From Escherichia phage RB43: a DNA stretch of 64,000 bases. Under the pieces are notes generated by a model. It saw only the letters and a list, made by a program, of their open reading frames with translations. It was not told the origin of the DNA and searched no databases. The translations under genes were made by a program, and so were the position numbers. Shown here one piece after another: positions 1 through 64,000 of the stretch (position 1 is its first letter; each line of letters starts with the position of its first letter). Location: the sequence record NC_007023.1; one strand, given 5' to 3'.

Positions 1-939
1 TTAGTAGTGACTGAACCCTGCGGTTACATCGGTCATCACCTGATAACGACATACACGCATTTTGGCGTTGTCGTAATCTACTGGAATTGCTACCACATCG
101 CGAGGGTTAGCCTTAACGTGGATCACGCGCCCACGTCCACCGCCATAGTGAGGAAGATATGATTTAGCGGCAACATGCAAACCACACGAGCAAGTTTTGG
201 TTTTGTCTTCGTCTACCTGGTTGCGAGGCATTTTGACGATAGCACCAGGGCTGTTATCAAACTTGCCTGTTGCCATGTCTTTATAGTCTTCGCTAACACG
301 TTTCCATGCGTAGAAATCACCATCATCAGCCAGTTCGATATCGTTATGCACCAGGAAGCCATAAAGCTGATACACAGCATCACGGGACGGGTTTTGCATC
401 AGCTTTTCGAAGAAGTTCACCAGGTGTTCATACGGACGTTCATTATACATTTCACGAACGATTCGTTGGGTGATCCCTCCATCGAAAACGACATCTTTAT
501 ACAGCACTTTATGTCCGACGATCTTAATATTGCCTTTGCTGTACACTTTCAGGGCTTGCTTAGTGTTCAGCAATGCGGCTACACCTTCGATATCGCCTTT
601 AGTCAACAGCGCGTGTGCCTTTTCGAAGTTCGGGTGAGTAGAATCAGCAGTCAGGATTTCGCCGTTGATTACCAGAGTAATGAATGATTCAGAACCAATC
701 ATTTTCGAACTCACATCCGTTTTCGGTAGTGCTTTCGATTCTTCCTGCTCATACTTCGCGTGTTGTTCGGTAATAACGCGCCCGATGGTTCGGACGCTTA
801 CACCAAATTGTTTAGCCAGTGCGGTTTTGTTTGCGCTGGTTAGAAAGCCCTCATAGACTGCTTTCTTTTGTACATCATCGAGGATCTTAACAGTTCTCAT
901 TATTTCCACCGTATTAATTTTACCATAATCATCAGTCAT
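1..939 (-). CDS. rIIB: rIIB-like protein (C-terminal 312 codons of the continuous 1049-aa rII ORF)
   Basis: Internal ATG at 939..937 preceded by GGAAGA; HTH-like ALAKQFGVSVRTIGRV near N-term; conserved C-terminal FYAWK/FDNSPG/HPRD motifs; 312 codons to TAA at 3..1, the length I recall for T4 rIIB; no stop separates it from rIIA part. Confidence 0.55.
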   Translation of the reverse strand: MTDDYGKINTVEIMRTVKILDDVQKKAVYEGFLTSANKTALAKQFGVSVRTIGRVITEQHAKYEQEESKALPKTDVSSKMIGSESFITLVINGEILTADSTHPNFEKAHALLTKGDIEGVAALLNTKQALKVYSKGNIKIVGHKVLYKDVVFDGGITQRIVREMYNERPYEHLVNFFEKLMQNPSRDAVYQLYGFLVHNDIELADDGDFYAWKRVSEDYKDMATGKFDNSPGAIVKMPRNQVDEDKTKTCSCGLHVAAKSYLPHYGGGRGRVIHVKANPRDVVAIPVDYDNAKMRVCRYQVMTDVTAGFSHY

Positions 940-3150
940 CGCTTTATCTTCCAGAATATACCGGATTTGATAGCCATCACTGTTTCTCAGGATTCGAGCA
1001 ATTAACGGATTGCGTTTAGCGAAAATCTCATATTGTTCGTCAACGCGTTCAATCATTGCATGTTCCATTTCTTCATGTCGGGCCTGTGCCACACGAATAG
1101 ACGGGTTCTTTGCTTCTGTCGTTTCACCGTCTTCTGTAGTCTGCATCAACACTTTACCATCAAGCGTGTTCAGAATATTGTATCGACGCGCATCATAACG
1201 GTTTTTAACCATGCGATCAAGGCTAATACCCAACTTTTCATATAGCTCTTTAACGGAATCACGGTACTTTTTCGAAACAAAAGCCGGATACCAGTTAGGT
1301 TTCATTTCTTTTGCAGTCTTGCAGAACAATTCAGCAAGGAACGTATCAAGACAAATCATGCTGCTGTCTGGGATCTTATTCCATAACGAATTACGGAGTG
1401 TATACACCACACGAACACCAGAGATTTCCATCACAGTAGCCAGGTTATTCATGATGTTTGACATCGAGAAGTTATTCGACTCACTCAACGAACTGTAATC
1501 ATCAACACCATACAGACGCAATGCGTATGCAGATTCGAGGTTGACAAACTCCGCTTTCGTGAGGAACAAATCTTCTTTGTTCAAATCGCCATTGATCCCG
1601 ACCGTGTAACGGTATGCTGTCGGCGTTTTCGGACGCGGTTCGGAATCTTTATCGATTGTTTCGCGTGTTGCTCTCCAGCGACGGCGATCCTCAGTATACA
1701 CTTCCAGTTCTTCCGTCATTTCACTGGTTTTCAGATAAACGATTTCAGATTCATCATAGTAACCGTTTTTGATGAAGTTCTGTAAATTATCCTGATTTCT
1801 GTTCGGATCGTATTCAATAAAGTTCATACGGTAAGTTTTGTGAAGCATACAGTACCCGATAGCATACGCACGTACAGACTTCGCGTTGTTATCGTTCTGT
1901 AACAGATACAGGTTTCTTTGCTTCCACGGGTGCAGCATACGCGTAATATCCTGGCGGCGCATGGTTTCAGATTTATACGCGTCGTAACGACGACCAGAAC
2001 CTGTGCGCTCAAAACTGCAATCTTTACCGTCATACACGTTCGCCCAGTATCCCCAGATCTGCATACTGGTGACCAGGTCTTTACTATTGAAGTGCATCAC
2101 CAGTTCAGCAAGGGTATTTTTCCCTACTTTAAACTGCTTATCACGGGTAACGAAAGTCTGCAACAGCGTTGGTAAATTTTGATACCAAATAACCTTTTCA
2201 CGCGTCGTTTTCAGTTTAGCAAATTCTGCTGATAGTTCTGAATAATACTGGTCGTTGATTGCTCCGAGTCGATCCATGATAACTTTCTTGGTGATCTTAT
2301 CAAGGCTTAACTCTTCGCGTGACGGCATGAAATCCAGAGAACCCAGCGGAAAATCCAAAATGTACGCATAGCTACTGTTCTGGTAGCAATAAAACAGGGA
2401 TTCTCTGAACATATCCAGGTCAATAGGATAGCAAATGTTACCCATACGCGCATACAAACCGGAATAATGCTTTGACTTATAACTGATGATCCCGCGATTA
2501 TTTGCTTCTGTCGGTTGCCAGTTGATATCCAGTTGAACACCAATAAAGCGAGGACGAATAGTTGTAAACGCTTCGTACACACGAGCGGCTTCACGTTCCC
2601 ATTCTGGGATATCTTCGACGTTAACCGGAACTGTTACCTGAACGCCGTTAGGTTCATCAGTTTCTACAGCATACAGAGGGTCAATGTACGGTTCGCCGTC
2701 TTCATTGAGGTAAGCAGTATAACCGCGCTTCATGCCGTCCTGAATTGATTCTACGGTGAATGTTGAGGTGTAGCAGAACGGTGATTTGCTACCCAGCCCC
2801 AACGCCCCGATCAGGTCGTCGGTGTCGGTTTTGGTTGATTCGAAATAAACGGTGAATACTTCGTTCACCATGTAATCACTCAGGCCAGTACCGTAATCAC
2901 GAACGATGAAACGAGGATCGAGAACAGTCGGTAACTGAACGTCAAAGCGATCCATGTTACCCGCTACGATATGACCATCAATCGCGTTACAAGAAATCTC
3001 ACGAATGATTGCGCGGATCTTGTATTTGTAGATTGTGGATGAAAGGATTTTGAACGCTTTCTTACCTGCTCTCATTCCAAAAGCTCTACGGCTTCCAGAC
3101 TCGATACCTACACGATGAACTGTGCTTGCTTGGCTTTCGCGTAACTTCAT
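940..3150 (-). CDS. rIIA: rIIA-like protein (about 737 codons, reads in frame into rIIB)
   Basis: ORF track 1..3150; N-terminal ATPase-like motifs (NAIDGH, DYGTGLS, GLGSKSPF) resembling T4 rIIA. Confidence 0.7.
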
Positions 3151-3160
3151 TGTTTATATC

Positions 3161-3394
3161 TCACTTGTTGAAAATAATGTTTTCGCATGAATACTTTGTC
3201 GGTTTCTTGTCGATACCGTATTCAAGCGGTGTACACATACGATCCATATAATCGTAAATTTCTTGTTTTCGTTTTTCTTCCTTTTTCATTTCAAGGATAC
3301 CAAAAACGATAGCAGTCACAAAACACATAGCGATAGTTGAAAGAATAACGATAGCTACATATTTTGATGTGTTTGGTGCGCTGTATGGTCTCAT
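3161..3394 (-). CDS. small membrane protein (hypothetical)
   Basis: 77-aa ORF with hydrophobic helix VAIVILSTIAMCFVTAIVFGIL; ATG overlaps upstream stop (ATGA). Confidence 0.4.
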   Translation of the reverse strand: MRPYSAPNTSKYVAIVILSTIAMCFVTAIVFGILEMKKEEKRKQEIYDYMDRMCTPLEYGIDKKPTKYSCENIIFNK

Positions 3395-3933
3395 TGTAAC
3401 ACCTTTGCAAATTCCTGTGAAGTCAGTTTACGGGCAACTAAACGCCCTTTTGTTGATGCTTTATGGCCTACCATATACATCGTTGAAATGTTGCGCTTTC
3501 CTGATTGAATCTCATTATACATCTTTTCAGGCATGGTTGATTGATAAACTTCACCGTTTGATGTTTTCAGGAACATCGCGTAAACATGGTCATCTTTCTT
3601 TTCGATGATTTCTTTTTCACGAACACGAACCTTAGATGATGTTGGTTTAGCACCCAATTCAATAGCCTTTCTTTGCCATGCAGGTCCGTGTCCAGCACCA
3701 TAACCAACAAGGGCATGTGCGATTTCGTGCATAAGAGTATCTAAAATGCACTCGTAGGTATCTTCTTCAACATGTTTCCGGCGTAACTGGATCTCTCTTT
3801 TGGAGTAACTGCAACAACCCAGAGTAGTTTTCAAACGTCCATTAATTTTGAATGACCAATCAGACAAACCATGTTTAGCCATGATGCTTTTGGCCCAAAG
3901 AATAATTTCCATGTCACTACGAGTTTTGAACAT
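3391..3933 (-). CDS. SprT-like zinc metalloprotease domain protein
   Basis: HExxH motif (MHEIAHAL) plus Cys cluster; start MFKTRSD with AGGAGGA 6 nt upstream. Confidence 0.6.
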   Translation of the reverse strand: MFKTRSDMEIILWAKSIMAKHGLSDWSFKINGRLKTTLGCCSYSKREIQLRRKHVEEDTYECILDTLMHEIAHALVGYGAGHGPAWQRKAIELGAKPTSSKVRVREKEIIEKKDDHVYAMFLKTSNGEVYQSTMPEKMYNEIQSGKRNISTMYMVGHKASTKGRLVARKLTSQEFAKVLQ

Positions 3934-4005
3934 TTTACATCCTCCTAATCGGTAGCGGGAGTAATATAACAAAAAAGCCCCTGCATCGCAAGGGCTTAAT
4001 GTAAA

Positions 4006-5296
4006 TTATTTCAATTTCTTCGAAAGTTCTTTCAAATCATTGAGATATTCAATTTTCGGGGTTGTCTCTTCCCAGTATTTCAGTTGCTTGCGCAATTCAT
4101 TTGCTTCATCTTCCAGCTTTTGACGTTCGTCAGTAGTTAGATGATAGGATGTTCATCGCAACCAGTATTTCGGCGTGGTTTTCGCAACCCTTCCATGTTG
4201 ATACGAATTGAACCGCTTCACTACGACTCAAGCCCTTCAACGAGTCAGGAGATTCAATCATCTGGTCGATAAATTCAACCTTAGCCAGCGCCCTTGCAAG
4301 TGCTTCCTTCGCTTCCTGTATGCGTTTTTCGATGCGCTGTTGATAAACCGTCATACGGATATCAACGAAATCTTTCAACAACGTTTCAGGACGTTCATAT
4401 GAATGCAACTTACCATTGAAGATAACGTTGATGTTCGGGTTTGAGTTCTCAATCAATCCAAAATCTTTCAGGATCTTTTCATGGGTAAGCCCGTTGGCAT
4501 ACTCACGTTTAAGGGTTATCTCATAGCGAAAATCTTCTTTCGATAGATCCTTATAGCTTACGATACACCCTTTCTCTTCCAGCTTATCCAGAATCGCAAT
4601 ATATTTCACGCGATCATACTTGACCGGAATCTCAGTGATCACCAGTTTAGTTTTACCCTGGAGTTCGTACTTACCGTACATTGTCCCGTCTACAATGTCA
4701 CCTTTAAATTGTGGATATTTCAGGTCAAGCGTGAAATCTTTCCCGTTCAGGTAACTAACACATCCATTCAGAACCGAAACCGGATCATGTGGTGGAATGT
4801 TTGTCGCGTATCCTTTCGCGATCCCTCTGAACCCGTTAACCAACACCATAGGAATGATTGGCAGATAATAGGCTGGCGGTAGGTGTTCAGGATCTTCATG
4901 CGGGATTGTTAAATCTTCGTCCATGTAGATAGCCTTGAACAGCGGAGACAGCTTACAGTAAATGTAACGAGGTGCGCCAGGCTTCTTAACCAGACGGGAA
5001 CCAAAGAACCCATCACGATCGAAAAGCGGGATATTATTGCACCAGTGCGCCGCCATGAGAGACAACGCTTCTTCAACGGATGTTTCCCCGTGGTGATACC
5101 CGTATATTGCAACACCGCCAGCAATAGATGCTACTTTCTGGAAGCCTGAACCTCCTTTCGCTGCTGAATGCACGAAGAAACGGTGAACGGGTTTGAACCC
5201 GTCTACCAGGTGCGGGATAGCACGAGAATAAATTGTGTAAAGGGCAAACGTAAGCCCTTCAACCTGTACAACGTCTTTAATACTTCTTTCCATCAT
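4006..5296 (-). CDS. 52: DNA topoisomerase II medium (GyrA-like) subunit gp52, reading frame broken near 4133-4152
   Basis: N-term AIPHLVDGFKPVHRF GyrA signature; 388-aa ORF 4130..5296 ends prematurely and a coding-like +1 frame (DERQKLEDEANELRKQ...KKLK) continues to TAA at 4008..4006. Confidence 0.7.
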
Positions 5297-7185
5297 TTCA
5301 CCGAAAATTTATGTTTTCCGTCAACCCAGTCTTTACGCGGATCGGACTCTTCACCGAAACACAGTTCCAGAACGTCTTTGTAATCGTCGCCCAGTACGAT
5401 TGTATCGTATTTTAACTGGTCGCCCAACACGCGATCGTAATCTGATTTACGCAAAGAACCCAGACCTTTGATGTATCGTACCTCTTTCGCTTTGTCGCGG
5501 AAAGGTACAAAATCGTCCATAGAGTAGAACCATTTTTCATCTTTTCCGATTTTAGCAATGATAATCGGTGTACGGATATACCGGATCTTTTTCTTCTCGA
5601 ACAACTCAGGCCAACGACTAAAGAACGCAATCAGTAGGGTGAGAATATCGCCCCCGTCAACGTCCGCATCCACCATGATCCCGATATTGTCGTATGCCAT
5701 TTCGGAAGAGTCGCCTGGATGGAGATTCAGGATCGCCATTAACTCGAATAACTCTTTGTTTTTGAGAATGTCGGTAAAGCTCATTCCCCAGGTGTTCAAC
5801 GGTTTGCCACGTAGCGGAAATGCGCCTTGTGTCTCTTCGTTTCTGCACTCGATAAACTGCCCTACAGCGGAATCACCTTCGGTCAGAAACAAAGTGGTTT
5901 CGACTCCATCGGTATCAATCCCTGATGCGGGAACATGTTTTGCAATCTTCGCCTTTTTCGCTTTCTTTTTCGCTTTCGTAATTGCTGCGGCTTCTGCTGC
6001 TTGCTTGCGAATAAGAGCGGATTCAATGATCGGAGTGATTATTTCAGAAGTATCCATAATCTGCTTCGCGATCTTTTTGTAATTCAATCCGGCGTGATTG
6101 TTGAACTCTCCAGCAGTATTGGTCAGTTTTTCTTTCGTCTGACTGTCAAAAGCTGGTGCATTGAAGTTATGCAAAAACACGACCAAAGTCAAGCATTCTT
6201 TTACACGGGCTTTCGGGATCTCGATAGCGTGTTTCTTCTTGATCATCGGTTCCAGTTCGGCATAGATACCATCAATCATACAATCGACGTGTACGCCACC
6301 GTTTTTTGTGTCCAGACCGTTGACGAATGATTTTTGTTTGAATCCGTCTTCTGTGCTCGCCAGGATGAAACTAATTTTGTTGTTTGTCTGCGTGATTGTG
6401 CTGTCGCCATACATCGCGCCATACATCGCAAACTTATTCGGTAATGTTTCACCGTTGTATGTGAATTTAACCGAAGGGAACGCCACTGCAAGCGCCATAA
6501 GGCGATCTTTGATGACTTCCTTTGTTTCTTCGTCGATGCCATCAACACCGAAGATTGAGAAATCAGGGGTAAACTTAACAGTGGTTCCCTGTTCTTTCGT
6601 CGGGCTTGTACGGTAATCCATGTTCTGTGCGCCGTCAGTACAGTTGATCGTGACTTTGCGCTTACCGTTGGATGTTTCACCGATAAAGATTGAACTGTAA
6701 CAGTTCGTCAGGAAAGAACCTACACCGTTCATCCCCATTGTTACGCGGTTTTCATCATCGAAGTTTGAACCAGATTTTGCCATAGTCCAGGCTGCAACAG
6801 GTTTAGGAACAATTTTCCCTTCTGGTGTTCTCACGTCATCTTGTGGAATACCGCGCCCGTTATCTGAGATTGTCACCAGATTATGATCAATCTTCACTTC
6901 GATTCTGTTCGCGAATTTAAAATCTGTACGGATCGCTTCGTCGATTGAGTTGTCGAGAATTTCATTGATGATTTTCACCAGACCTTCGACATATTCCACT
7001 TTGCGGAATTTACCCATGATGAAGCGTTCGTGTGCTTCGCGGTTCACTGAACCCACATACATGTTAGGACGTTTGCGAATGTGATCGCGGTCACTCAGGC
7101 AGAAAGATTCATCAACCTTTACGCCTTTTGGCGTTTCCGGTACTTTCTGCGGTTCGTCTTCGTCCATTAAGAAATCTAAACTCAT
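5293..7185 (-). CDS. 39: DNA topoisomerase II large (GyrB-like) subunit, gp39 and gp60 equivalents in one ORF
   Basis: GHKL ATPase motifs (ILDNSIDEA, ISDNGRGIP) and Toprim motif (TEGDSA) in one 630-aa protein; ATG at 7185 after AAAGAGGTG. Confidence 0.85.
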   Translation of the reverse strand: MSLDFLMDEDEPQKVPETPKGVKVDESFCLSDRDHIRKRPNMYVGSVNREAHERFIMGKFRKVEYVEGLVKIINEILDNSIDEAIRTDFKFANRIEVKIDHNLVTISDNGRGIPQDDVRTPEGKIVPKPVAAWTMAKSGSNFDDENRVTMGMNGVGSFLTNCYSSIFIGETSNGKRKVTINCTDGAQNMDYRTSPTKEQGTTVKFTPDFSIFGVDGIDEETKEVIKDRLMALAVAFPSVKFTYNGETLPNKFAMYGAMYGDSTITQTNNKISFILASTEDGFKQKSFVNGLDTKNGGVHVDCMIDGIYAELEPMIKKKHAIEIPKARVKECLTLVVFLHNFNAPAFDSQTKEKLTNTAGEFNNHAGLNYKKIAKQIMDTSEIITPIIESALIRKQAAEAAAITKAKKKAKKAKIAKHVPASGIDTDGVETTLFLTEGDSAVGQFIECRNEETQGAFPLRGKPLNTWGMSFTDILKNKELFELMAILNLHPGDSSEMAYDNIGIMVDADVDGGDILTLLIAFFSRWPELFEKKKIRYIRTPIIIAKIGKDEKWFYSMDDFVPFRDKAKEVRYIKGLGSLRKSDYDRVLGDQLKYDTIVLGDDYKDVLELCFGEESDPRKDWVDGKHKFSVK

Positions 7186-7230
7186 ATTCACCTCTTTATT
7201 AGTTCAGTCATTATATAGGGTTCTATGAAA

Positions 7231-8045: not shown

Positions 8046-8065
8046 GATTCGATCCTCGTAATTGA

Positions 8066-10237: not shown

Positions 10238-10461
10238 AATCATTTCCTCCCCTTGTTTTGATGGGATAACTATATCAAAGCTACCCCGCGAAGTCTTTAG
10301 CAAAAAGTGCTATGAATGCACCCAATTTCCGATCGCTACGATAAAGCAGGTAATGAAAGGTGCATTACAGAAAAAGTAGATCCCGTAATCAAATTCGGGA
10401 AGTTTAAAATTGTGGGCTGCGAGATAAACAAAGTTAGCAAACACCCACAAAGAAAAGACGA

Positions 10462-12479: not shown

Positions 12480-13150
12480 CGTTTCCTCGGAAAACTAAGT
12501 TCGTCAGTTTCTTCTTCGGTCGGCGGTTCTTCCAACCCCATTGCATAACGCATAGCATAGATTAGCATCAACGCATCTTTTGCGCAATCGTGAATTGAGT
12601 TGTGCATCACAAAACCATTCAAAATACCTTTACGCAGAGGACAGGTAGAAGCCCCACGGGTTAACAGTCGGTTTTCAATGGCTGTACGCACATCACGGCT
12701 ATTCCAGAACACGGTCGGCATATCATCAAAGATATCAACCTTCCCTGTCATCTTGCGCACCACGTCAACCAGGATACCGCGATCGAACTCAGGGCCACGA
12801 ACATAATCGAGTGATTGCCAACGGCTTACACCATCTGCTTTCAAGTCCTCGAAAAACTGTTTATGCCCTTCGTACAGGTCTATATCATCAGGCGAAGGTT
12901 TCAGAATAACACGGGCTTCTTCGCTTTGCTGTTTCCACCAATCGGATCGTTGATTTGTCTGCAATGCGATCTGGTTGCTTACGCAAATCAAATTTATACT
13001 TTTTACCGGCGGTGACACCAGTTCTTCGAACGTTGGCGGGTTGTGCGGATCATCGATAAACGGAACGTAAGACAGTTCGACGATTTTACCGTTTGGTGAT
13101 GGTCCTACAGTTTCGTAGTCCCATACATAATCAACGTAAAGATGCGTCAT
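12476..13150 (-). CDS. dexA: exonuclease A (DnaQ-like DEDDh 3'-5' exonuclease)
   Basis: DxE motif (VWDYETVG) and H-x4-D (HDCAKD); sits next to dda as in T4. Confidence 0.7.
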   Translation of the reverse strand: MTHLYVDYVWDYETVGPSPNGKIVELSYVPFIDDPHNPPTFEELVSPPVKSINLICVSNQIALQTNQRSDWWKQQSEEARVILKPSPDDIDLYEGHKQFFEDLKADGVSRWQSLDYVRGPEFDRGILVDVVRKMTGKVDIFDDMPTVFWNSRDVRTAIENRLLTRGASTCPLRKGILNGFVMHNSIHDCAKDALMLIYAMRYAMGLEEPPTEEETDELSFPRKR

Positions 13151-13775: not shown

Positions 13776-15107
13776 CTATACATAATCAACGGTATAACGT
13801 GCGCGGGTAACGCCCACGTAGATTAATTGTTTACACAGGTCGTAATCAGCGAAAGCGTAAGCATCGCGTGTGTACATGTAAGCATGGTCATACGTGCTTC
13901 CCTGTGCTTTATGGTACGTACAAACAGGAAGAGGCTTAACGTCCTGAAACTTGTTTTTAATCGCCCAGAATGAATGCCACGGGGCTTTATAACCTGTCTG
14001 CTGCTTGATGCGCTTATAGTTGCTCGCGACATAAGCCAGATAGTTCCCCAGACGTTCTTTCATCACCGGATCAACAACAACCTGAATCTGTGCTTCCTGT
14101 TCTTCTTCTAAGGATACCGTTTTCAAAAGGTAATAGTCAATAGAAATTTTCTCGTCGCACTTTTCAGCCTTAATGACTTCGGTTCGCGGGACAATTTCAA
14201 GAACACGAATCTTTTCGTTGTTGTTGTAAATGATCTCGGTGAATATCTGCCCGTTTAAACGCATTTCCTGAACTAACGGTTCCTGCATCACGATCACTTC
14301 ATCGAGAATAAAAGGTTGCGTTGTTTTGTACAGGTGTTTTCGGATCGTTGCGTTCAGTTTGTCTACGTTGTCGTTGGTGTAGGCAAACATACGGTTTTCC
14401 ATCAGGTCATCAGGCGTTTTCACACGACGAAAATACTGTTTCAGGAAGTCTACAGCGTTCGCATGTTGGAATACGCCCATATCCCCGACCGACATCGGTT
14501 TAAGCATCTTACCATCGCGTACAGCGCGTGAAACCTGAATGATTGGGTTTCCTTCTGCCTGTCGCATGATTTTATCAAGACGAATAACGTCAAAGATTTC
14601 TTCATCAAAGAATGGTGATAGTTCGGTTCGTCCATCAGCATTCACCGGACGGATCTGATCTTTGTCACCCAATCCCAGAATAACCGCATGGCTGGGAATA
14701 GTTCGCTTAATGATGCGAAACATTTCGTGATCAACCATCGATACTTCTTCAACAACAAACACACGACATTCAGACAAATCAGGCGCTTTTTTACCGCGTT
14801 GTTGTTCGAATACGCGGATCTCTTCATTAGTCACAGGGCTAATTTTCAAAGCAGAATGAATCGTCGTTGCATCCATACCTGTAGCCGCTGCGAGTACGTT
14901 TTTAGCCTGGTGCGTCGGGGCTGTTAACCACAACCCGCTAATCCCCATACTTTTTAGGGTTTCGAAGATAAACTTCACCAGCGTAGTTTTACCAACACCA
15001 GGGCCACCCGTGATTGTGGTATGCACCTTGTTTTGAATGTTTTTAATTACTCGATCATGACCTTTCTTCTGGTCATCACTCAGATCATCAAATGTTAACT
15101 CGTTCAT
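13776..15107 (-). CDS. dda: Dda DNA helicase (SF1)
   Basis: Walker A GGPGVGKTT; overall colinear with T4 Dda; 443 aa. Confidence 0.9.
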   Translation of the reverse strand: MNELTFDDLSDDQKKGHDRVIKNIQNKVHTTITGGPGVGKTTLVKFIFETLKSMGISGLWLTAPTHQAKNVLAAATGMDATTIHSALKISPVTNEEIRVFEQQRGKKAPDLSECRVFVVEEVSMVDHEMFRIIKRTIPSHAVILGLGDKDQIRPVNADGRTELSPFFDEEIFDVIRLDKIMRQAEGNPIIQVSRAVRDGKMLKPMSVGDMGVFQHANAVDFLKQYFRRVKTPDDLMENRMFAYTNDNVDKLNATIRKHLYKTTQPFILDEVIVMQEPLVQEMRLNGQIFTEIIYNNNEKIRVLEIVPRTEVIKAEKCDEKISIDYYLLKTVSLEEEQEAQIQVVVDPVMKERLGNYLAYVASNYKRIKQQTGYKAPWHSFWAIKNKFQDVKPLPVCTYHKAQGSTYDHAYMYTRDAYAFADYDLCKQLIYVGVTRARYTVDYV

Positions 15108-19942: not shown

Positions 19943-20225
19943 GGGTATCTCCTTTTAATCTATCGTTGTCTACGGGAGACATATTATCATACTGACTACC
20001 CGTGTCAACAACTTTTAGATATCGGGAATTTTTTGCGATCCATCGCGTTAAAGCAGGGAAGATACCCGCAACAGCAATCAGCACGAACACCCATGCTGCG
20101 AATTTAATCACCGCCAGCAGAATGAGCGGAGAGAATACCAACCACCAGGACGCGGTAGCCATAAGCCCAACTTGAGCGAGTTTCAAAGCAAGCAGGATCA
20201 GGAAGATGATAGTTAAAGTTTTCAT
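19911..20225 (-). CDS. membrane protein (104 aa)
   Basis: Two TM helices; AAAGGT SD. Confidence 0.45.
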   Translation of the reverse strand: MKTLTIIFLILLALKLAQVGLMATASWWLVFSPLILLAVIKFAAWVFVLIAVAGIFPALTRWIAKNSRYLKVVDTGSQYDNMSPVDNDRLKGDTHERITEQPIR

Positions 20226-28371: not shown

Positions 28372-29035
28372 TTACTTGAACTGGCTGGTTGCTTCAAGTA
28401 CAACCACGTAGGCAACGCCATTTTCGGAAGAGAATTTTGCAGCGCCCTGTGCGGAGATCAACTTTGTAATCGCTGTTGATGAACTGCATGTTGTCAATTT
28501 TCATATCGAAATTGAAAACGTTGTCACCTTCATACTCACCAACTTCAACAGAGAATGTTGATTGGCTTTCTTTACTTTTCGCGGTGATTACCAGTTTGCC
28601 GTTGATTGGTTCAACAGACAGGTCGGTCAGTTTCATCATGCGTGATGCTTTGATCAGCTTTTCGAAATCGTTAGCGCTAATCTGGAAAATCAGATCCGCT
28701 ACAGGCATTTGCAGACGCTTTTTAGGTTTGACGATAGTCGTCGGATCACATGAACGCTCAACGATTTTCATTTTCTCTCCGCGAATAACGATTTCGCCAG
28801 TGGACAGATCGTGTTTTACGTCAGCATCAGTACCAACAACGTTCATCATGTTCAGGAATGAGTTCAGATCGTAGATACCTACATCTTCGTCGATTACATC
28901 GGGAATTTCGGCTTCCGCATAAACCACGCTGTTAATAGATTTCGTCATAATGAACGAACCTTTGGTCAGCATAATAGACGGGTTGATCTGGGAGAAGTTT
29001 TTCAGGATATCAATTGTTTGTTTTGAGAATTTCAT
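28372..29035 (-). CDS. 45: sliding clamp gp45, C-terminal frame broken at homopolymer 28445-28447
   Basis: N-term MKFSKQTIDILKNF as T4 gp45; listed ORF ends in non-homologous tail RCKILFRKWRCLRGCT, while +1 frame gives GAAKFSSENGVAYVVVLEATSQFK ending TAA 28374..28372. Confidence 0.8.
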
Positions 29036-37136: not shown

Positions 37137-37850
37137 ATGATTAACGAAAAAATGACACATCGCGAAGCGTTGGAAATCTTAGGGGCTACTGGTACTGAAT
37201 CCAAAGCCGAAATGTCCAAACTCTTCAAACGTGCTTCTCTGCGTAATCACCCCGATCGTGGTGGTAGCACAGAACTCATGCAAAAAATTAACCAGGCATA
37301 TGACGTAGTAACGAGAACAAACAGTTCTGGCGAAACTATGATGGATATGCGAGCGCGTCACGCAGCGAATAAAAAAGCGTGGGAAGAAAAACTGGATGCG
37401 TATTTTGTTGTTGCTAAGAACTATTTCAGCACGAAATTTAACGCACAGGAATTCGCTGAATACTTCACCAAATACACCGGACAACCGACGACCTTCACAC
37501 AGGAAGTCAAGAAAGATACAATTTCCGTATCTGCTGTGTTCCGTTTCACTTCTGGTGATGCTCACTTTGATTTCGCTTTCTACTGCAAGCCGGAAGAAGG
37601 TAAAGGTTTGATGTCTCCTGATGCAAGCGCATTGGGTAGTGTTTCTGTCAATACTCTGGTATTGGTTGGAACCAAAAAACATAAAATGGCAAGCCGTGAA
37701 TATCAATGGGGCAAAAACCCAGATAAGATCACACCAGAAAGCCTGTTCCCGTCCAAGAAACTTGCATCAATTTTCAGCCCGACACAAAAGAACCTCAAGT
37801 TCAAACGTGCTGACTATATGACTTCTTTCCGCAAGCACTTAGACGCATAA
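37137..37850 (+). CDS. J-domain (DnaJ-like) protein
   Basis: ATG after GAGGAA; EALEILG...KLFKRASLRNHPDRGGS with HPD tripeptide. Confidence 0.65.
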   Translation: MINEKMTHREALEILGATGTESKAEMSKLFKRASLRNHPDRGGSTELMQKINQAYDVVTRTNSSGETMMDMRARHAANKKAWEEKLDAYFVVAKNYFSTKFNAQEFAEYFTKYTGQPTTFTQEVKKDTISVSAVFRFTSGDAHFDFAFYCKPEEGKGLMSPDASALGSVSVNTLVLVGTKKHKMASREYQWGKNPDKITPESLFPSKKLASIFSPTQKNLKFKRADYMTSFRKHLDA

Positions 37851-48309: not shown

Positions 48310-48574
48310 ATGATCGAACGTGAAAATGTAAATGTTATGGTTGAACTGGGTGATCGTGTTAAAGTTGACAATCCTGTAGATTTGCAACTAAATTAACCAG
48401 TTAGGCCAACGTCTTGTTGATCGGCTTCCTGCTGGTTATAATGTGAAACTTGTCCGTGACGGTCAGTTCTCCTTCCTGTTGGGGATCATTAGTCAACGTG
48501 GTATCGTTGAACAACAGTTCGGAATCCAATGGAATCCGGTATCTAAATTTGTTACTTGGGCTGGTGTCCTATGA
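48310..48574 (+). CDS. small protein, frame broken at AAA run near 48390
   Basis: ATG ORF stops after 28 codons; +1 frame continues 60 codons and ends TGA overlapping next ATG (ATGA). Confidence 0.3.
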
Positions 48575-49037: not shown

Positions 49038-49562
49038 ATGAAATTACTTCATATGATCCGCGCCATAAAGCAAAGTCAGGGTTCTCGATGTATATCGAAC
49101 CGTGTAGGCGCTGTTATTGTAATGAATGGGCGTGTGGTTTCACAGGGTACGAATAATACGGTTGATTCTGATTGTCGATGCGCCGATCATAACAATCATA
49201 TGCTGAATGATGAAGGTAAGTTGAAAGCAATTCATCGACCAGAACATTCAGCATGGTCGAACGATAACGAAATTCACGCTGAAATGAAAGCGTTGCTAAG
49301 TGCTCATACTAATGGTATCATGCTTAATAACGCAGAGTTATACACAACCGCTTCACCGTGTCCGAACTGTGCAAAACACATCGAATGGTATGTTGCGATT
49401 GGTGCAATAACTTCTGTATATTTCCTCGATAAATACGATCGTGGTAATGATGAATGGATTTCGCGTTTGCAAAAATATGGTTGCAAAGTGGAACAAATTA
49501 AACGGGAAAAGTTGGAACCTCATATCAACTTTTCTAATGTAGTGTTTAACAACAATGAGTAA
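49038..49562 (+). CDS. cd: dCMP deaminase
   Basis: Zinc-binding HAEMKAL and PCPNCA motifs. Confidence 0.85.
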   Translation: MKLLHMIRAIKQSQGSRCISNRVGAVIVMNGRVVSQGTNNTVDSDCRCADHNNHMLNDEGKLKAIHRPEHSAWSNDNEIHAEMKALLSAHTNGIMLNNAELYTTASPCPNCAKHIEWYVAIGAITSVYFLDKYDRGNDEWISRLQKYGCKVEQIKREKLEPHINFSNVVFNNNE

Positions 49563-50171: not shown

Positions 50172-50248
50172 GGCCCTTTAGCTCAATTGGTAGAGCGAAC
50201 CCCTCATAAGGGTGTGGTTTCCGGTTCGAGTCACGGAAGGGGCCACCA
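50172..50248 (+). tRNA. tRNA with CAU anticodon (Met, or Ile2 if lysidine-modified)
   Basis: Cloverleaf by hand: acceptor GGCCCTT/AGGGGCC, D-arm GCTC-AATTGGTA-GAGC, anticodon loop CTCATAA, T-loop TTCGAGT, 3' ACCA; T-stem carries one extra base. Confidence 0.6.
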
Positions 50249-51742: not shown

Positions 51743-52105
51743 ATGAAAGCGTATCAAATTTTAGAAGGTTTACATACTGGTACTATCTATCTGGAAGAAG
51801 GAAACGATGTTCGGATCGTAGTATCAAAAACTCTCGAAGTGGATTCAGTGATCGGAAAATCTCGCGTTGTACCATTCGCAAAACGTGAAGTTGATATTGA
51901 GTTTCAACCGACTGTTAAAGTTGAAGGTGGACAGCACCTAAACGTGAATGTGCTACGTCGCGAAACCCTGGAAGATGCTGTGAAACATCCTGAGAAGTAC
52001 CCACAGTTAACGATCCGCGTTTCAGGTTATGCAGTTCGCTTTAATGCACTGACTCCAGAACAACAGCGCGACGTTATCGCCAGAACCTTTACGGAAAGCA
52101 TGTAA
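51743..52105 (+). CDS. grcA: autonomous glycyl radical cofactor (GrcA/YfiD-like)
   Basis: C-terminal 70 aa nearly identical to E. coli GrcA as I recall it, including glycyl-radical signature RVSGYAV. Confidence 0.8.
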
Positions 52106-52329
52106 TGTCTATTGAAGATATCAAGGGGTATAAACCCCATACTGATGAAAAAATTACGATCGTGAATCGTATCAAAGCAGCAGAAAATGAACTGGGTGCT
52201 ATCCTGGATGATCTTGATAAACGATATTCAGGTGATTACGCCTGTTCAGATCTGGAATCACACACAGAAAAAGAACTTGATGAAATGCTCGAACGTACAC
52301 ATCAAATTCAATGGCAAAAGACCGACTGA
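52105..52329 (+). CDS. hypothetical protein (74 aa)
   Basis: ORF track; ATGA coupling to grcA-like gene. Confidence 0.45.
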   Translation: MSIEDIKGYKPHTDEKITIVNRIKAAENELGAILDDLDKRYSGDYACSDLESHTEKELDEMLERTHQIQWQKTD

Positions 52330-52392
52330 AAGAAGCCTCTATGTGGGCGTGTCGTGCGGTGTTCCAGCCAGAAGAAAACTATTAAAATCAAG

Positions 52393-52485: not shown

Positions 52486-52543
52486 ACAACTTAACTTTGA
52501 GGATGACATTATGAACAACTTAACTTTGAGGATGACATTATGA
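52486..52543 (+). repeat. perfect tandem duplication of 29 bp containing SD and ATG
   Basis: ACAACTTAACTTTGAGGATGACATTATGA at 52486-52514 and 52515-52543. Confidence 0.85.
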
Positions 52544-52828
52544 AAACTTACAACATGAAAGACCTGGTTGCTTCAAAACTCGTCGTGAAGCCCGTGCGTA
52601 TGTTCTGGCGGCTGGTAAAAATACCTCTGCTGTAATCGACCTGGGTACTGATAAAGAGGTTGGTGCTCGTTGGGCCGCTGTTGTGGTTATCGCTGTCCCT
52701 GTTACCCCTGCTAAAACTCTGGTTCTGGGTGCTCGCAATAGCGAAACTTTGAACACCAGCACTTGCAATAACAGAGGAGTTCATAGTGTCAAAGTGTTCA
52801 AACGTCGCAGCATTGGTGCGAGGGCTTA
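52511..52828 (+). CDS. internal-protein-like gene (MKTY N-terminus), frame broken
   Basis: ATG 52540 gives MKTYNMKDLVASK... but stops after 31 codons; 94-codon frame without start runs 52536-52828 and ends TAA overlapping next ATG. Confidence 0.3.
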
Positions 52829-53038
52829 ATGATGGTAAATTTCAAAGCAGGTGATCTTATTTCACCAAAGAACCGAGAATGCATTAAAGAGTTCCCATAT
52901 TGGGAAAATCTGGAGATTGTATCTTTCTGCTCTGATTTGTGTGAAGCGGTAGTACGTCAAAAGGATGGTTGGATGTGTAATCATTTTAACCTCGACCCAG
53001 AATTTGGTGAAGAGTTCGAAGTTGTTGGGAGTGTATGA
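52829..53038 (+). CDS. hypothetical protein (69 aa)
   Basis: ORF track; TAATG coupling. Confidence 0.45.
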   Translation: MMVNFKAGDLISPKNRECIKEFPYWENLEIVSFCSDLCEAVVRQKDGWMCNHFNLDPEFGEEFEVVGSV

Positions 53039-53039: not shown

Positions 53040-53162
53040 ATGAGCAAAACCAAAGAATTAGAACAGAAAGTATTGGGGTTCATGAGTAACAGCGAAGATC
53101 GCTATGCGAAACACCTCATTGTTGAACTGATCACCGAGTACGCCGCCGTGACAAAGAGATAA
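53040..53162 (+). CDS. hypothetical small protein (40 aa)
   Basis: ATG 1 nt after upstream TGA. Confidence 0.3.
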   Translation: MSKTKELEQKVLGFMSNSEDRYAKHLIVELITEYAAVTKR

Positions 53163-53471: not shown

Positions 53472-53698
53472 AATACGTTTTAGAATATTGCGAACATGAG
53501 TTCACCGAAGACATGATGAACAAAATGCGGGTGTATAACCAAAATATTACCAGCATCACCCCTGTTACAGCTTGTCGTGAATTCGTGGGTTATTCGTTTA
53601 CGATTTACACAAATTCAGAAGATGACGCAACCGCATATCTGAAAAGCATTAATGCAATCTTCGACAAATTCGAAAAAGTATGGAAGGTAGGTTACTAA
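53468..53698 (+). CDS. hypothetical protein (76 aa)
   Basis: ORF track; ATGA coupling. Confidence 0.45.
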   Translation: MKYVLEYCEHEFTEDMMNKMRVYNQNITSITPVTACREFVGYSFTIYTNSEDDATAYLKSINAIFDKFEKVWKVGY

Positions 53699-53859
53699 TG
53701 AATTTTATCAACGCAGCATACAAGAAATTTTCGACGCGCTGGAAGCCTGGAAGACACGCACAGACGTTTCTATCACTTCGGCATCCAACGGTACTACATA
53801 CGACCGTTACGACCCTTCTCGTGGCTTACACAAGCCGTATGAGACTAAGGAATCAAAAT
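53698..53859 (+). CDS. small protein, frame broken near T-run 53703-53706
   Basis: ATG overlaps upstream TAA; coding-like -1 frame (QEIFDALEAWKTRTDVSITSASNGTTYDRYDPSRGLHKPYETKESK) ends TGA overlapping next ATG. Confidence 0.3.
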
Positions 53860-54154
53860 GAAGTATTACGGGTTTAAAACGAGTCATTACGGTAAAGCGT
53901 ACCGAACTGATAACATCGATCGCAAACGTCCGTATTATGATTCTCTGGTACGTGCAGGTCGTAAACGTGCTCGCCAGGAAGGGAAGAAGGAAGGAGAAGA
54001 CCGTGGTTGATAATTCAGATCTGAATGAAGCACTTCGTTCTATTACTGCGAATACTAAACCGAAAAAGAGAACAGGAGAAATCATCTTTTTATGTGTATG
54101 GTATTTTGTGTTTAGCTTTGTTGTTGGCGCTGCATTTGCGAAATGGTTCTTATA
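53859..54154 (+). CDS. small basic protein with C-terminal TM, possibly frame-broken near 54005
   Basis: MKYYGFKTSHYGK... 50 codons, then +1 frame encodes hydrophobic tail IIFLCVWYFVFSFVVGAAFAKWFL. Confidence 0.3.
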
Positions 54155-54595
54155 ATGGATATCGGATCAGGTAGTCAATACCCATCATGCGCATTGAGCA
54201 ACTTTGCACCGCATCCGTTTACATTCGACGGGGTAGAATGTGCATCAATGGAGGGCTTTTTACAAAGTCTGAAATTTAGCAATCCAGATATGCAAGCGCA
54301 TGTGTGTACTCTGGTCGGTAAAGCCGCGAAGTTCAAAGGCAAAAAGAAAAAATGGTGGACAACTCAAACCCTGTATTGGAAGGGTATTCCGATACATCGT
54401 GAATCCGAAGCCTATCAGATCCTTATCGAAAACGCGTACAATGCGTTGTTCCTGAATGAAGGGTTTCGCCGTGCGCTGAAAGCAACCGGAAAAAGTACCT
54501 TGACTCATTCAATGGGAAAGAATAAGATGAATGAAACGGTGCTCACTGAACGTGAGTTTGTGCGAAATTTAACCCGACTAAGGGATCTGTTATGA
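54155..54595 (+). CDS. NADAR (YbiA/DUF1768-like) domain protein
   Basis: N-terminal LSNFAPHPFTFDGVECASMEGFLQSLKF matches NADAR core pattern SNF..P....DG......E..FQ..KF. Confidence 0.55.
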   Translation: MDIGSGSQYPSCALSNFAPHPFTFDGVECASMEGFLQSLKFSNPDMQAHVCTLVGKAAKFKGKKKKWWTTQTLYWKGIPIHRESEAYQILIENAYNALFLNEGFRRALKATGKSTLTHSMGKNKMNETVLTEREFVRNLTRLRDLL

Positions 54596-54857
54596 GTGAA
54601 AAAGAAAGAGTAGAATGCGTGTTCCTGTTCAAAGGCGCGATTAATCCATTAGCGTTACTGTATGCACAACATGCATTACGTTCAACGTTGATTCAGAGTG
54701 TTATCTATAAAGGCAGGTGTGTATTATGTTACCATCGGCGCAAATAACATGGTTGTTATTGAATCCTATGTTAAGGAATGCGCATCAAACGGCGTTGTCT
54801 TTGATAAAGTCGATTTTGATGCTGGGGTAGATGCTGTTTATATGTATAAGGGTTGAT
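54592..54857 (+). CDS. small protein, frame broken near 54700
   Basis: ATG overlaps NADAR stop; two consecutive frames each coding-like. Confidence 0.3.
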
Positions 54858-55055
54858 ATGAGTTACGTAGTTTATTTTGATTGTTCGGATCTCGATCCGT
54901 TCGTTCTTCAACAGGCAAAGAAATATCATCAAGATGTCGTTGGCATTGGTGTAACAAATGATGATATGTTGTGCATCGAATTTGAATATTATCGGACATT
55001 TGAGCGTGAACAATTCCTGGGTGAATTGAATGCATTCAAAAGTACCCTTTCTTGA
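54858..55055 (+). CDS. hypothetical protein (65 aa)
   Basis: ATG (MSYVVYFD) after TGATATG. Confidence 0.4.
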   Translation: MSYVVYFDCSDLDPFVLQQAKKYHQDVVGIGVTNDDMLCIEFEYYRTFEREQFLGELNAFKSTLS

Positions 55056-57682: not shown

Positions 57683-57700
57683 ATAGCACTTTTTGTTAAA

Positions 57701-57737: not shown

Positions 57738-57774
57738 ACACACATCGAAACGAAACAGACAAAAGGAACATCCC

Positions 57775-58044: not shown

Positions 58045-58057
58045 TTAATTAAACCAC

Positions 58058-58086
58058 TTGCACATCGCGAGGGGTTTTGATACATT
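58058..58086 (+). promoter_or_regulatory. sigma70-like promoter (TTGCAC-N17-TACATT) with conserved leader
   Basis: Followed by CCATATCGAAACGAAAGGAG leader and ATG 58116. Confidence 0.5.
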
Positions 58087-58115
58087 ACCCATATCGAAAC
58101 GAAAGGAGAAACATC

Positions 58116-58295
58116 ATGAAAGTTATGCACACTGCGAACCAACTTCAAAACGGCAACTACGCGATCCACGATGCTATCGGTGCGCTGGTTGGGGTTTATC
58201 TTCCTGGTAGCAAATACCTTGAAGTTAGTGGGAATACCTTTACTGATGTTGAAAACATCGAAGCAGCAATGGAAATCATTGGTGAACTGAAATGA
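58116..58295 (+). CDS. hypothetical protein (59 aa)
   Basis: ATG 7 nt after AAAGGAGAA. Confidence 0.45.
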   Translation: MKVMHTANQLQNGNYAIHDAIGALVGVYLPGSKYLEVSGNTFTDVENIEAAMEIIGELK

Positions 58296-58483
58296 GCAAG
58301 AAACTCGAAACATGGGAAACCATCAGCGAAGATCCGAATCTTCGTTGGTGTTGTGCGAAAACTGGTTTTGATGCTGCATGGGGTGCTACTCCAGAACAGG
58401 CGCGAGAAAACTGGGAACATCAGCAAATGTTCTTTGCGCATAAAACCCCATTCAATTATGACGGGAGTCACATAGCAGCATGA
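58292..58483 (+). CDS. hypothetical protein (63 aa)
   Basis: ORF track; ATGA coupling. Confidence 0.4.
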   Translation: MSKKLETWETISEDPNLRWCCAKTGFDAAWGATPEQARENWEHQQMFFAHKTPFNYDGSHIAA

Positions 58484-60255: not shown

Positions 60256-60315
60256 TAGACATCCTCCCTTTATTCTATTTACTAAATAGTAAATATCGGG
60301 ATACTTGAGGCGATT

Positions 60316-60891: not shown

Positions 60892-62625
60892 TAATGGCTA
60901 AAAACCCATATTACAGCGACGAACAACGTCGCAGGATGCAAAATCCACAACAGCCACAACCCACCGTTCGTAAGATTAACGCAACGTTGGATAAGGCTTC
61001 AATGAACGAATTGAAGGACATCAACAATAACACTCTTGAAACCGCGCTGAATACGCTGGATATCAAAGAGGGTATGAAGTCCTTTGAAGATAGATTTAAA
61101 GACAAATTTGCAGGGTTTAAAGAGCAATTCGAACAGGATCAGGAACCTCTTGCAGAACAGTTACCTGATTTTGTCGGCCCCGCACGACCTGCATCACTGA
61201 CAGACAACAGCACAACCACTGTTGACAATTCCGTTAGTGTAAGAAACCATCCGTTTAGCAAGCTGGAAGAACATACAGGCACTATTGCAGAAGCGATAAC
61301 ATCGTTTATCGCTCTTGCAAGCAAGAAGCCGGAACCAGCACCTGAACCGGAACCCGTGCCGGAAGAAGAACCAGAAGTTGATAAGACGAAGAAGAAAATT
61401 CGTGATAAAGACAAAGACGAGAAGAAATTCAGTAAACGTGTATTAGCATTGCTTGATTCAATCAAAAACAATACATCAGGGATACTGTCTCGCTTTATTG
61501 GTTATTCACTCGAAGCACTGGCTAAATTCGCTAAGTGGACATTGATTATTGGTAGCATTGTATTCGCGATCGACGTTCTGGCTAAGGTTGTTCAGAAGTG
61601 GTTCCAGGATATTCTAAGCGAGGGTGAAGCCTCGAAAGAATTGTTCGGATCATATTTCAAGAACATCAAAACACTTGCTGAAAAAATCAATGATGGTCTG
61701 GAAAACTTCGATATGAGCAATCTGGGCGACTCACTGAAAAATCTCTTTTTGGAACCGTTCAAAGTTCTGGGTGATACGATTAAAACCGCTATCACTGAGG
61801 GTATCGGTAATCTGATTTACGCACTGGGTGAATATACCGGATCGGAAACCATTACTGATGCAGGGCGCGGAATGAAAGTATCTGCGTTGCGTGATAAACA
61901 GAAATATGGTTTAGAGATTGATCAGGATGACCTGATTATGCTCAAAGAGCAAGAAATTCAGGATCAGAAAGATAAGATTGTTGAAGCCCGTTCTCAACTT
62001 ACGGATCAGGTTAAAGCGACACAGGGCGCGTTCTCCTATAGTTTCGGGAAGCAGACAGACGCACAGAAAGCATTGTCTAAGCAACTCGAAGAAATGCGCG
62101 ATCGTGTTTCTCTGGAAGAACAGATCACGAAGGAGAAAGAAAAGGAACTCCAGATGCTGAAAGACAACCCTACTCTGTTAAAAGAGCAGGTGCAGAAGGA
62201 GAACACCGAGAACCGGAAACGTGTTGATGATTCTAAGCAGATCGAAGCAGCACAGCAGACAAGCTAAACCAAAAGCCGAAAGCGAGTTTGATCGAGGTGA
62301 AGAAATTTTGGGTAAAGACGATATCACCGCGAAAGATAAAGAGTTGATGGATAAGATCATGGAATCTCTTGAAGAGAAAAATGCTACCCAAAAACTCGAC
62401 GAAGACGATCGCGAAAAATATCGTGCGATGCTGGAACAATGGCAGAACAAGATTGCAGTAGTACCGGAAAGCAGCGCACCAATTGACAAGCAACCGGAAC
62501 CTGTGAGAGCACCAGTTGATGCAGTTGCTTCTAACAACGTCCAGGTAAACCAAAAAACAGTTAATAACATGGTACAACATTCAGTACAACGCACTGAACG
62601 TAAGCCATTGATTGCATTAGCATAA
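60888..62625 (+). CDS. 29: baseplate hub / tail-length protein gp29-like, frame broken near 62259-62267
   Basis: 459-aa ORF 60888..62267 plus +1 frame continuation to TAA 62623-62625 totals about 579 aa; coiled coil and hydrophobic segment; precedes gp48/gp54. Confidence 0.55.
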
Positions 62626-62636
62626 GGGAAATTTAC

Positions 62637-63722
62637 ATGAAAATCAAAGTATTACAAGACACTGTGCAATCATTTGCTGAAATAAAAAATGCTGGCATCC
62701 CCTCTGGGGGTGCTACAACCACGAAAAACGCATTGAGTCAACCTATTGTAACAGCGGAATTTCCTTCCCAACGTGCAGCAGGTATTGATAACGCGTACAA
62801 CGCATCAAGCCTGTATAATAACGGCTTGCTGTTTACTGCATATGATTTCACTGGTGGTCTTGCACCAGGTAGCAAAGATAACTATCGTTCATTACGTCAA
62901 GCAGCACAGAACGCAAAACAGATATTAAGCGCTAACACAGGTAATGTTCGATATAAACAGGTTTTGAATACCCGTACTATGGGTACATTGAACCCGATTT
63001 GTCAAATACTTTTACCTCGAAGCCTTAACGACAACGAAGTAAACAGCCACCGTTACCAGGATGCAACCGATAGTATCGTTGCTAAAGGTTTGTCCCGTGC
63101 GGTGTCTAACGTTATCTGGGGTGCTGTAGAATCGGTTTCTGGTGGTATTCTGGCAGACCGTAGGGAAGCGATCGATATTGGTACGAAAGCAGCGTTTCAA
63201 GGCTCCGATAAACGTACAAAGATGTATTACAATACATTCGTAATCGAAAGCCGTTATGATCTGCTTGAACTGATTAAAATCTATTACCTGTTTACTGTTC
63301 TGGGTTATGGTACTACGTCAGGTGGTACACCTGCTGAACTGGCTGGCCTTGTTAAAACGGCGTATAACAATACAGCGTCTAAAGTGGCTAACGTGTTTGC
63401 ACCATCCAGCAACCAGACAACAGCAAGCGATTTCAATGACAGTATCGGTGATCAGATTGTTGACTTCGTATCGAACGTTGAGGTTATTAAATCGCCTCCA
63501 GTATGGTTTATTCGTGATTTCCAGACAGGTGACAGTCTACGCTTCCCGCATTCTACATTCGGGCCAGCAGGTATTACCAGCGTTCGTTTCGGGCGTACTA
63601 TGGATAATATCGTAAATACATTAAGAGAGTCACCCAATACACCGATATCCGTTGAAATCGAAATTCAGTTTATGGAATTGATCGACATGCGTCAAGATTC
63701 TATTTTCGATGTTCAATACTAG
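62637..63722 (+). CDS. 48: baseplate tail-tube junction protein gp48-like
   Basis: 361 aa, AAGGGAA SD; size and position as T4 gp48. Confidence 0.55.
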   Translation: MKIKVLQDTVQSFAEIKNAGIPSGGATTTKNALSQPIVTAEFPSQRAAGIDNAYNASSLYNNGLLFTAYDFTGGLAPGSKDNYRSLRQAAQNAKQILSANTGNVRYKQVLNTRTMGTLNPICQILLPRSLNDNEVNSHRYQDATDSIVAKGLSRAVSNVIWGAVESVSGGILADRREAIDIGTKAAFQGSDKRTKMYYNTFVIESRYDLLELIKIYYLFTVLGYGTTSGGTPAELAGLVKTAYNNTASKVANVFAPSSNQTTASDFNDSIGDQIVDFVSNVEVIKSPPVWFIRDFQTGDSLRFPHSTFGPAGITSVRFGRTMDNIVNTLRESPNTPISVEIEIQFMELIDMRQDSIFDVQY

Positions 63723-63730
63723 GGGGAATA

Positions 63731-64000
63731 ATGTTTTATAGCGTAGATGAATTCTTATCTGGAATGGCAAACAAAGATTTTCAACGCAGCAACTTGTTTA
63801 GCGTTGTGTTCGCCACGAGTCCAGCATCACGCATTCTTGATAGCACGATCGGAAGTATTCGAGATACGTTGATTGACGGCACAATGAGTTCAATCAACGC
63901 GAACAACCCGAACGAGTTCATGAACGCTATCACAGGGGGTGTAAGCAAATTATTCAGCTATACAGTTGATAAAGCGATTATGTCCCTCAACAAAACAGGA
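63731..64000 (+). CDS. 54: baseplate protein gp54-like (5' partial, continues beyond window)
   Basis: ATG after AGGGGG; ORF open to window end. Confidence 0.5.
   Translation, partial: MFYSVDEFLSGMANKDFQRSNLFSVVFATSPASRILDSTIGSIRDTLIDGTMSSINANNPNEFMNAITGGVSKLFSYTVDKAIMSLNKTG

Follow-up and report, generated by a model that had tools for sequence, protein, structure and literature searches.

The 64,000-nucleotide stretch of DNA analyzed here (the window) corresponds to the first 64 kb of the genome published for Escherichia phage RB43 (NC_007023/AY967407), is T4-like, and has a G+C content of 43%. It opens with rIIB and rIIA and further on carries gene 52, dexA, gene 45, the neighboring genes 057w and 058w, and gene 29, together with a cluster of small novel open reading frames (ORFs) at 48-55 kb. 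A sequence-only reading of the window had counted at least ten frame breaks in these genes, and alignment with an independently sequenced RB43 genome and a tblastn scan bear that count out, revealing 21 single-base insertions or deletions (indels) in ~16 events that alter 12 genes. In all likelihood, these frame breaks are base-calling or consensus errors of the 2005 RB43 record and not properties of the phage.

Two further records, both named Pseudotevenvirus RB43 (HE858210.2 and HE981739.1), match the window at ~100%. They are the RB43-GVA wild-type and rki::gfp genomes, both obtained by Illumina sequencing, and at least 107 nucleotides are stated to differ genome-wide from the published RB43 genome in the accessible text of the report describing them (Perrody et al. 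2012, PLoS Genet, PMC3486835). The Citrobacter phages Miller, CfP1, Xman, and IME-CF2 match the window at 95-99%. We aligned window positions 401-64000 to positions 1-63603 of HE858210.2 and used Miller, CfP1, Xman, and Lw1, which stem from four different sequencing projects, as outgroups at the indel sites, counting the sites that could be aligned. The effects on genes were determined by translating the window and GVA from identical start codons. In a second scan, stop-to-stop ORFs of Miller, CfP1, and GVA served as tblastn queries against the window.

The GVA records open inside rIIB, their base 1 corresponding to window position 401, and a search for window 1-400 in the last 2.8 kb and the first 66 kb of the GVA record gave no match. 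That record thus seems to lack ~400 bases of rIIB, in line with the ‘approximately 99% coverage’ stated by its authors. Window 1-400 was instead compared with Miller, IME-CF2, and Xman, to which it is 99.3-99.5% identical; the coordinate spans against these three phages (1000 for 999) leave space for one net gap, namely the one at position 927.

Over the aligned region, the window differs from HE858210.2 by 2 substitutions and 21 single-base gaps in 20 openings. Nine of the gaps are extra bases in the window and 12 are missing ones, so both gain and loss of bases occur, as had been proposed from the sequence. The same break sites were recovered as frame switches in the tblastn scan. The description of the breaks as single-base holds for most events, but not for six that involve two or three bases, as pairs of indels or, in dexA, a triplet, lying 0-65 nt apart. 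Their placement at short homopolymers is likewise correct in part: 19 of the 21 indels change the length of a run, but the true run is only 0-2 bases long at 12 of the 21 sites, and it never exceeds five.

The polarity of the differences is uniform. At all 23 sites (21 indels and 2 substitutions) the GVA state is found in every alignable relative among Miller, CfP1, Xman, and Lw1, and the window is the sole outlier. HE858210.2 and HE981739.1 both lack all 21 indels. The sequence-only reading had suggested resequencing and comparison of each junction with relatives as checks; the existing Illumina genomes provide the former and the four outgroups, intact at all alignable sites, the latter. At the protein level, the broken products match exactly the AAX78xxx/YP_23xxxx entries of ‘Escherichia phage RB43’ (a 180,500-bp record), with a single contig for each, whereas tens to hundreds of contigs carry the intact lengths (428, 221, 575-578, 749, 68, 96, and 73 amino acids (aa)). 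For the small ORFs, the GVA versions match their PHROG profiles over the full length. A variable-length pattern scan of IMG/VR, a collection with few close relatives, yielded no match for the gene 45 junction and one for that of gene 52, which was the intact gene of CfP1. In the accessible literature we found nothing on an RB43 rIIA-rIIB fusion, nor on errors in the RB43 record beyond the remark on ‘at least 107 nucleotides’.

Breaks had been predicted in gp52, gp45, and gp29 and, with less assurance, at the rIIA/rIIB junction, and the GVA comparison confirms all four (Table 1). The extra A at 927 places rIIA in the frame of rIIB and thereby produces the annotated 1049-aa ‘RIIA-RIIB’ fusion (AAX78523), which is found on one contig only; in relatives the protein has 749 aa. 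The 387-aa gp52 (YP_238980) is unique among cluster mates of 428-429 aa, and the 457-aa gp29 (YP_239079) among relatives of 575-578 aa. For gp45, hundreds of contigs have the 221-aa form and a single one has the 213-aa form; restoring TT regenerates the conserved 221-aa C terminus, as the sequence-only reading had anticipated. Four breaks had been overlooked: those in dexA, ORF034c, and the ORF starting at 53031, and one at 52311 that is shared with GVA and described below. The 224-aa DexA forms a singleton cluster, and the 104-aa ORF034c is confined to the RB43 record, its relatives having 68 aa.

As read in the window, gp45 would lack 29 and gp29 121 C-terminal residues. Both genes are essential in T4, so a phage carrying both truncations should not form plaques.

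The extra A in rIIA also appears to have affected the numbering of the genome. By convention, the origin of each genome was set at the rIIA termination codon (Nolan et al. 2006). The RB43 record instead begins at the rIIB stop, which occupies exactly window bases 1-3, with the rIIB region at 1-903. With rIIA and rIIB joined by the extra base at 927, the apparent ‘rIIA’ stop is that of rIIB, which explains an origin ~900 nt away from the rIIA stop. Miller, CfP1, Lw1, and RB16 have records that begin where RB43 does, with rIIB at 1-900, and that presumably copied its convention. In the CfP1 record (NC_031057.1), rIIA is annotated as two identical tandem copies (900-3149 and 3149-5398) with the same protein sequence, which may reflect either a true duplication or an error of assembly.

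The small ORFs at 48-55 kb show the same pattern. The break foreseen in an ORF at 48310 is that of ORF072w, whose 28-aa product (AAX78594) is a singleton, whereas the 88-aa form spans PHROG 8225 end to end. An internal-protein-like gene had also been listed as broken; it is probably ORF083w, which lacks a T in the window. Its 31-aa product (AAX78605) is a singleton as well, and the 96-aa form is found on many contigs. Three broken small ORFs had been expected at 53698-54857. Two lie there, with breaks at 53718 and 54712, but the third, ORF092w (55050/51), is just outside. The repaired 54-aa and 87-aa forms of the first two give a full-length match to PHROG 5441 and cover PHROG 7604, respectively, and the 73-aa form of ORF092w occurs on hundreds of contigs as against one for the 65-aa form.

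Upstream of the break in ORF083w lies a 29-bp tandem duplication (2.3 copies, 97% matches; window 52486-52550) that doubles the ribosome-binding site and ATG of this gene. The first copy opens a 10-codon mini-ORF, the TGA of which overlaps the second ATG. GVA shares the duplication, whereas Miller and CfP1 do not, and shorter match spans suggest that it is missing from other relatives too.

Table 1. Sites in the window at which a base is gained, lost, or substituted, or a gene is split, relative to RB43-GVA, to related phages, or to both (lengths are given for the window first)
Feature	Change	Window position	Strand	Effect or distribution
rIIA	extra A at 927 (TAAT vs TAT), 8 codons before stop	927-928	-	base absent in GVA, Miller, CfP1, Xman, Lw1
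Intergenic, upstream of ORF 3391-3933	extra G	3955	-	no coding effect; base absent in GVA and relatives
Gene 52 (topoisomerase II medium subunit)	extra G at 4147 (GG vs G), after codon 382	4147-4148	-	387 aa vs 428
Intergenic, Shine-Dalgarno region upstream of ORF 10025-10237	extra C at 10249 (CCCC vs CCC)	10249-10252	-	base absent in GVA and relatives
dexA	three extra G (12944, 13009, 13011)	12944-13012	-	22 codons out of frame, then frame restored; 224 aa vs 223
ORF034c	two missing T (20016, 20019), one destroying the TAA stop	20016-20020	-	104 aa vs 68
Gene 45 (sliding clamp)	missing TT at 28457 (T vs TTT), after codon 192	28457-28458	-	213 aa with 21 wrong residues vs 221
057w/058w	in-frame TAA (GAA in Miller, CfP1, RB16, Lw1) between the two genes	37848-37850	+	shared with GVA
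ORF072w	two missing A (48392, 48394); AAAATTAAA read as AAATTAA	48392-48395	+	28 aa vs 88
ORF079w	substitution, C (G in all others)	50932	+	Pro instead of Arg; window only
vs.4/acb2	1-nt deletion, TTCAA-TGG (TTCAATTGG or TTCAACTGG in relatives)	52311-52312	+	common to the window and both GVA records
ORF083w (MKTYNMKDL...)	missing T at 52567 (TT vs TTT), at codon 10	52567-52568	+	31 aa vs 96
68/71-aa ORF from 53031	two missing T (53138, 53159), 21 nt apart	53138-53160	+	43 aa vs 71 in GVA
54-aa ORF from 53698	missing T at 53718 (T vs TT), at codon 8	53718-53719	+	broken after codon 7
87-aa ORF from 54592	extra G at 54712 (GG vs G), at codon 40	54712-54713	+	split into 51-aa and 52-aa ORFs
ORF092w	two missing T (55050, 55051), at codon 65; TTTTCTTT read as TTTCTT	55050-55052	+	65 aa vs 73
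Substitution	T vs C	58220		synonymous; window only
Gene 29 (baseplate hub/tail-length determinator)	extra C (GACAAG vs GAAAG), after codon 455	62260	+	457 aa vs 576

Both window-only substitutions may be errors as well. When Miller and CfP1 were used as references in a scan for further in-frame stops or frame breaks, the only hits beyond the sites in Table 1 were spurious antisense ORFs or fusions specific to CfP1.

The distribution of the indels departs from that expected of natural divergence. The ratio of gaps whose length is not a multiple of three to substitutions is 20:2, or 10, between the window and GVA, whereas it is 0.04-0.08 among GVA, Miller, and CfP1. Six pairs of neighboring indels lie within 25 nt of each other where 0.17 would be expected, a number reached in none of 100,000 simulations (P<1e-5); such tight pairing fits short stretches of bad trace rather than independent mutations. 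Read on the + strand, the bases gained are G or C in eight of nine cases, and those lost are T or A in all 12. Seven of the 16 events fall within the 6.8-kb cluster of small novel ORFs (P ~8e-4). Conversely, no event is located in the first 75% of a gene of 300 aa or more (0/16; P ~0.001), in agreement with the earlier impression that the central parts of long genes are spared. Novel-ORF regions were under-represented in the shotgun clone libraries and were recovered by gap closure with the polymerase chain reaction (PCR) (Nolan et al. 2006).

The most likely sequence of events is as follows. The window is the 2005 consensus of RB43 assembled by Sanger shotgun sequencing and PCR closure, in which 21 single bases were miscounted, mostly in runs of one to three identical bases. 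The miscounts are often paired a few bases apart, as short stretches of poor, low-coverage trace would give. Errors that split obvious long T4 homologs were presumably caught at the finishing stage. Those left over affect the 3'-terminal parts of gp52, gp45, gp29, and rIIA as well as the non-essential dexA, and most of all the cluster of small novel ORFs at 48-55 kb. The annotators then called the resulting ORFs, and in this way the RIIA-RIIB ‘fusion’, truncated forms of gp52, gp45, and gp29, and the ORFs of 28 and 31 aa passed into RefSeq and UniProt. The identity of the record, the failure of Illumina sequencing to reproduce the indels, the outgroup state at every site, and the statistics above are direct observations, whereas the trace-level cause and the annotation-guided finishing bias are inferred.

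The principal alternative is that the RB43 stock sequenced in 2005 had genuinely accumulated some or all of the window-only indels as mutations, tolerated as pseudogenes. Several points weigh in its favor and thus against record errors. RB43-GVA is a separate laboratory lineage that was kept apart for ~20 years and is not the very stock sequenced at Tulane; as stock lineages differ, the window-only states could strictly be stock-specific mutations. In addition, the accessible text of the report on the GVA genomes indicates that they were seemingly built with ~99% coverage relative to the published sequence and hence are not fully reference-free. The affected ORFs are mostly small and non-essential, and in individual cases of this kind a real mutation is conceivable. 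In long genes, the breaks are close to the 3' end, as purifying selection would also give, and RB43 does have real lesions, at least one frameshift (52311) and one nonsense codon (37848). Even so, we regard authentic mutation as improbable. Natural divergence is the reverse of 21 indels against only two substitutions, and the six tight indel pairs and the strand-specific base bias resemble trace artefacts. The losses of 29 residues from gp45 and 121 from gp29 affect genes that are both essential in T4, and none of the window states is found on any other contig. The earlier view that some breaks might be authentic is right only for sites it did not single out, namely the 52311 deletion and the TAA at 37848, and not for the 21 window-specific indels.

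Record errors had already been preferred to programmed frameshifting from the sequence, and the absence of every window indel from GVA and the four relatives supports that choice. Programmed frameshift sites are conserved across relatives and carry slippery motifs. Beyond the occurrence of both +1- and -1-type breaks in expressed genes, nothing specific points to ribosomal frameshifting or another form of recoding. Neither resequenced RB43 nor any relative has the breaks, which leaves nothing to recode, and the sequences around them vary: the true runs measure 0-5 bases, and no slippery motif or heptamer is common to the sites. We therefore reject recoding for 21 indels that are unique to one record, and its probability is negligible. 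Phase-variable homopolymer tracts were also considered. Such contingency loci have a long mononucleotide run, typically of seven or more bases, the length of which varies between isolates; the true runs here are 0-5 bases, and two or fewer at 12 of the 21 sites. It could finally be supposed that the window is correct and the Illumina GVA records are wrong, as these are incomplete and begin inside rIIB. However, the GVA state is found at every site in four phages sequenced independently in other laboratories, and it yields intact, full-length conserved proteins. The outgroup comparison thus leaves this supposition virtually no chance of being true.

Two differences from the relatives are genuine features of RB43. 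The first is the 52311 deletion in vs.4/acb2 (window 52105-52384; RB43 ORF 52105-52329), described here for the first time. The window and both GVA records lack a T at this site, and the extra base is present in all four relatives (Miller, CfP1, Xman, and Lw1). All three RB43 records consequently encode a shortened product (74 aa as against 92-93) that lacks the second hairpin arm. The Miller ortholog scores 67.5 bits over positions 1-58 of 58 of the Acb2/Tad1 hairpin profile (PF24729), whereas the RB43 product scores 33.2 bits over positions 1-31 of 58 (cut-off 27). By sequence match, vs.4/acb2 is assigned to the anti-CBASS sponge family; the Miller ortholog matches T4 Vs.4 (PDB 7UQ2) with an E value of 3.5e-22. 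Of the single-base frame breaks in the window, this deletion alone is reproduced on resequencing; judged from its presence in all three records, it has the character of an authentic frameshift pseudogene. RB43 may represent a natural acb2-null among the T4-like phages.

Two codons downstream of the deletion, at 52317-52320, lies an A_AAG tetramer, a minimal -1 slippery sequence. In theory, a -1 slip at this tetramer would re-enter the frame of the conserved C-terminal arm (DRLKEASMWACRAVFQPEENY) with two residues changed, and some functional Acb2 might persist, but we consider this very unlikely. The tetramer is regarded as a coincidence of ancestry because the relatives read GCA AAA GAC at the same place.

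The second genuine difference is the TAA at 37848, which divides the gene for a 565-aa J-domain protein into 057w (rki, 237 aa) and 058w (305 aa). Alignment of the pair with the 565-aa gene of Miller and CfP1 requires no gaps, so the split is due to a nonsense codon and not to a frameshift. A frame break had been assigned to an ORF at the gp46.1 position, which does not hold: no indel is present there, and what separates the two genes is this in-frame stop. The overlap of the ORFs at 36874 and 37062 was examined as a candidate for the same claim and also contains no indel relative to GVA or the relatives. The split of rki from 058w by a stop had already been described, as the accessible text of that work indicates (Perrody et al. 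2012, PMC3486835).

These results have practical value, as NC_007023 is the reference record for Pseudotevenvirus RB43 and the wrong proteins are present in RefSeq and UniProt. The misleading entries comprise the 1049-aa ‘RIIA-RIIB’, the truncated gp45, gp52, and gp29, DexA with its scrambled segment, and the 28-, 31-, and 65-aa ORFs, all of which can mislead analyses of domain architecture, core genomes, and ORFans. For the affected genes, HE858210 is preferable to NC_007023. What remains of biological meaning is the apparently genuine vs.4/acb2 frameshift and the known rki/058w split.

Two other features of the window concern annotation in the relatives. A single tRNA-Met (CAT) gene lies at window 50172-50248 on the + strand, the strand also given in the CfP1 and Lw1 annotations; Miller annotates the homologous tRNA-Met (49270-49346) on the - strand, probably an annotation slip. 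Unrelated to the window errors, CfP1 has one 107-aa ORF (14654-14977) where RB43 (window 58053-58483) and Miller have two of 59 and 63 aa.

A close parallel to the RB43 record is a study of Mycobacterium smegmatis, in which interrupted coding sequences (ICDSs) reportedly proved to be due to sequencing errors in deposited genomes. As in the ICDS cases, single-base indels in a finished consensus of the Sanger era split or truncate genes, disappear on resequencing, and leave relatives intact. Unlike them, RB43 was checked by an existing independent Illumina genome and outgroups and not by targeted resequencing of the same DNA, and its record has the unusual features of a spurious rIIA-rIIB ‘fusion protein’ and an origin 900 nt from the intended rIIA stop.

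That the two RB43 sequences disagree has already been reported in outline and is not new in itself. The accessible text of that report concerns the same two sequences and the genome-wide figure of at least 107 nucleotides, and neither lists the differences nor judges them (Perrody et al. 2012, PMC3486835); here, 23 of them are located in the first 64 kb, polarized, and tied to 12 mis-annotated genes.

The RB43 breaks also resemble programmed frameshifting, as in the tail assembly chaperone G/GT or E. coli dnaX, in that two overlapping frames seem to make up one protein, but unlike G/GT and dnaX they are unique to one record and vanish on resequencing. With genuine split genes and pseudogenes, represented in RB43 by 057w/058w and vs.4/acb2, the comparison is more direct: two of ~18 sites survive resequencing, and only that at 52311 is a frame break.

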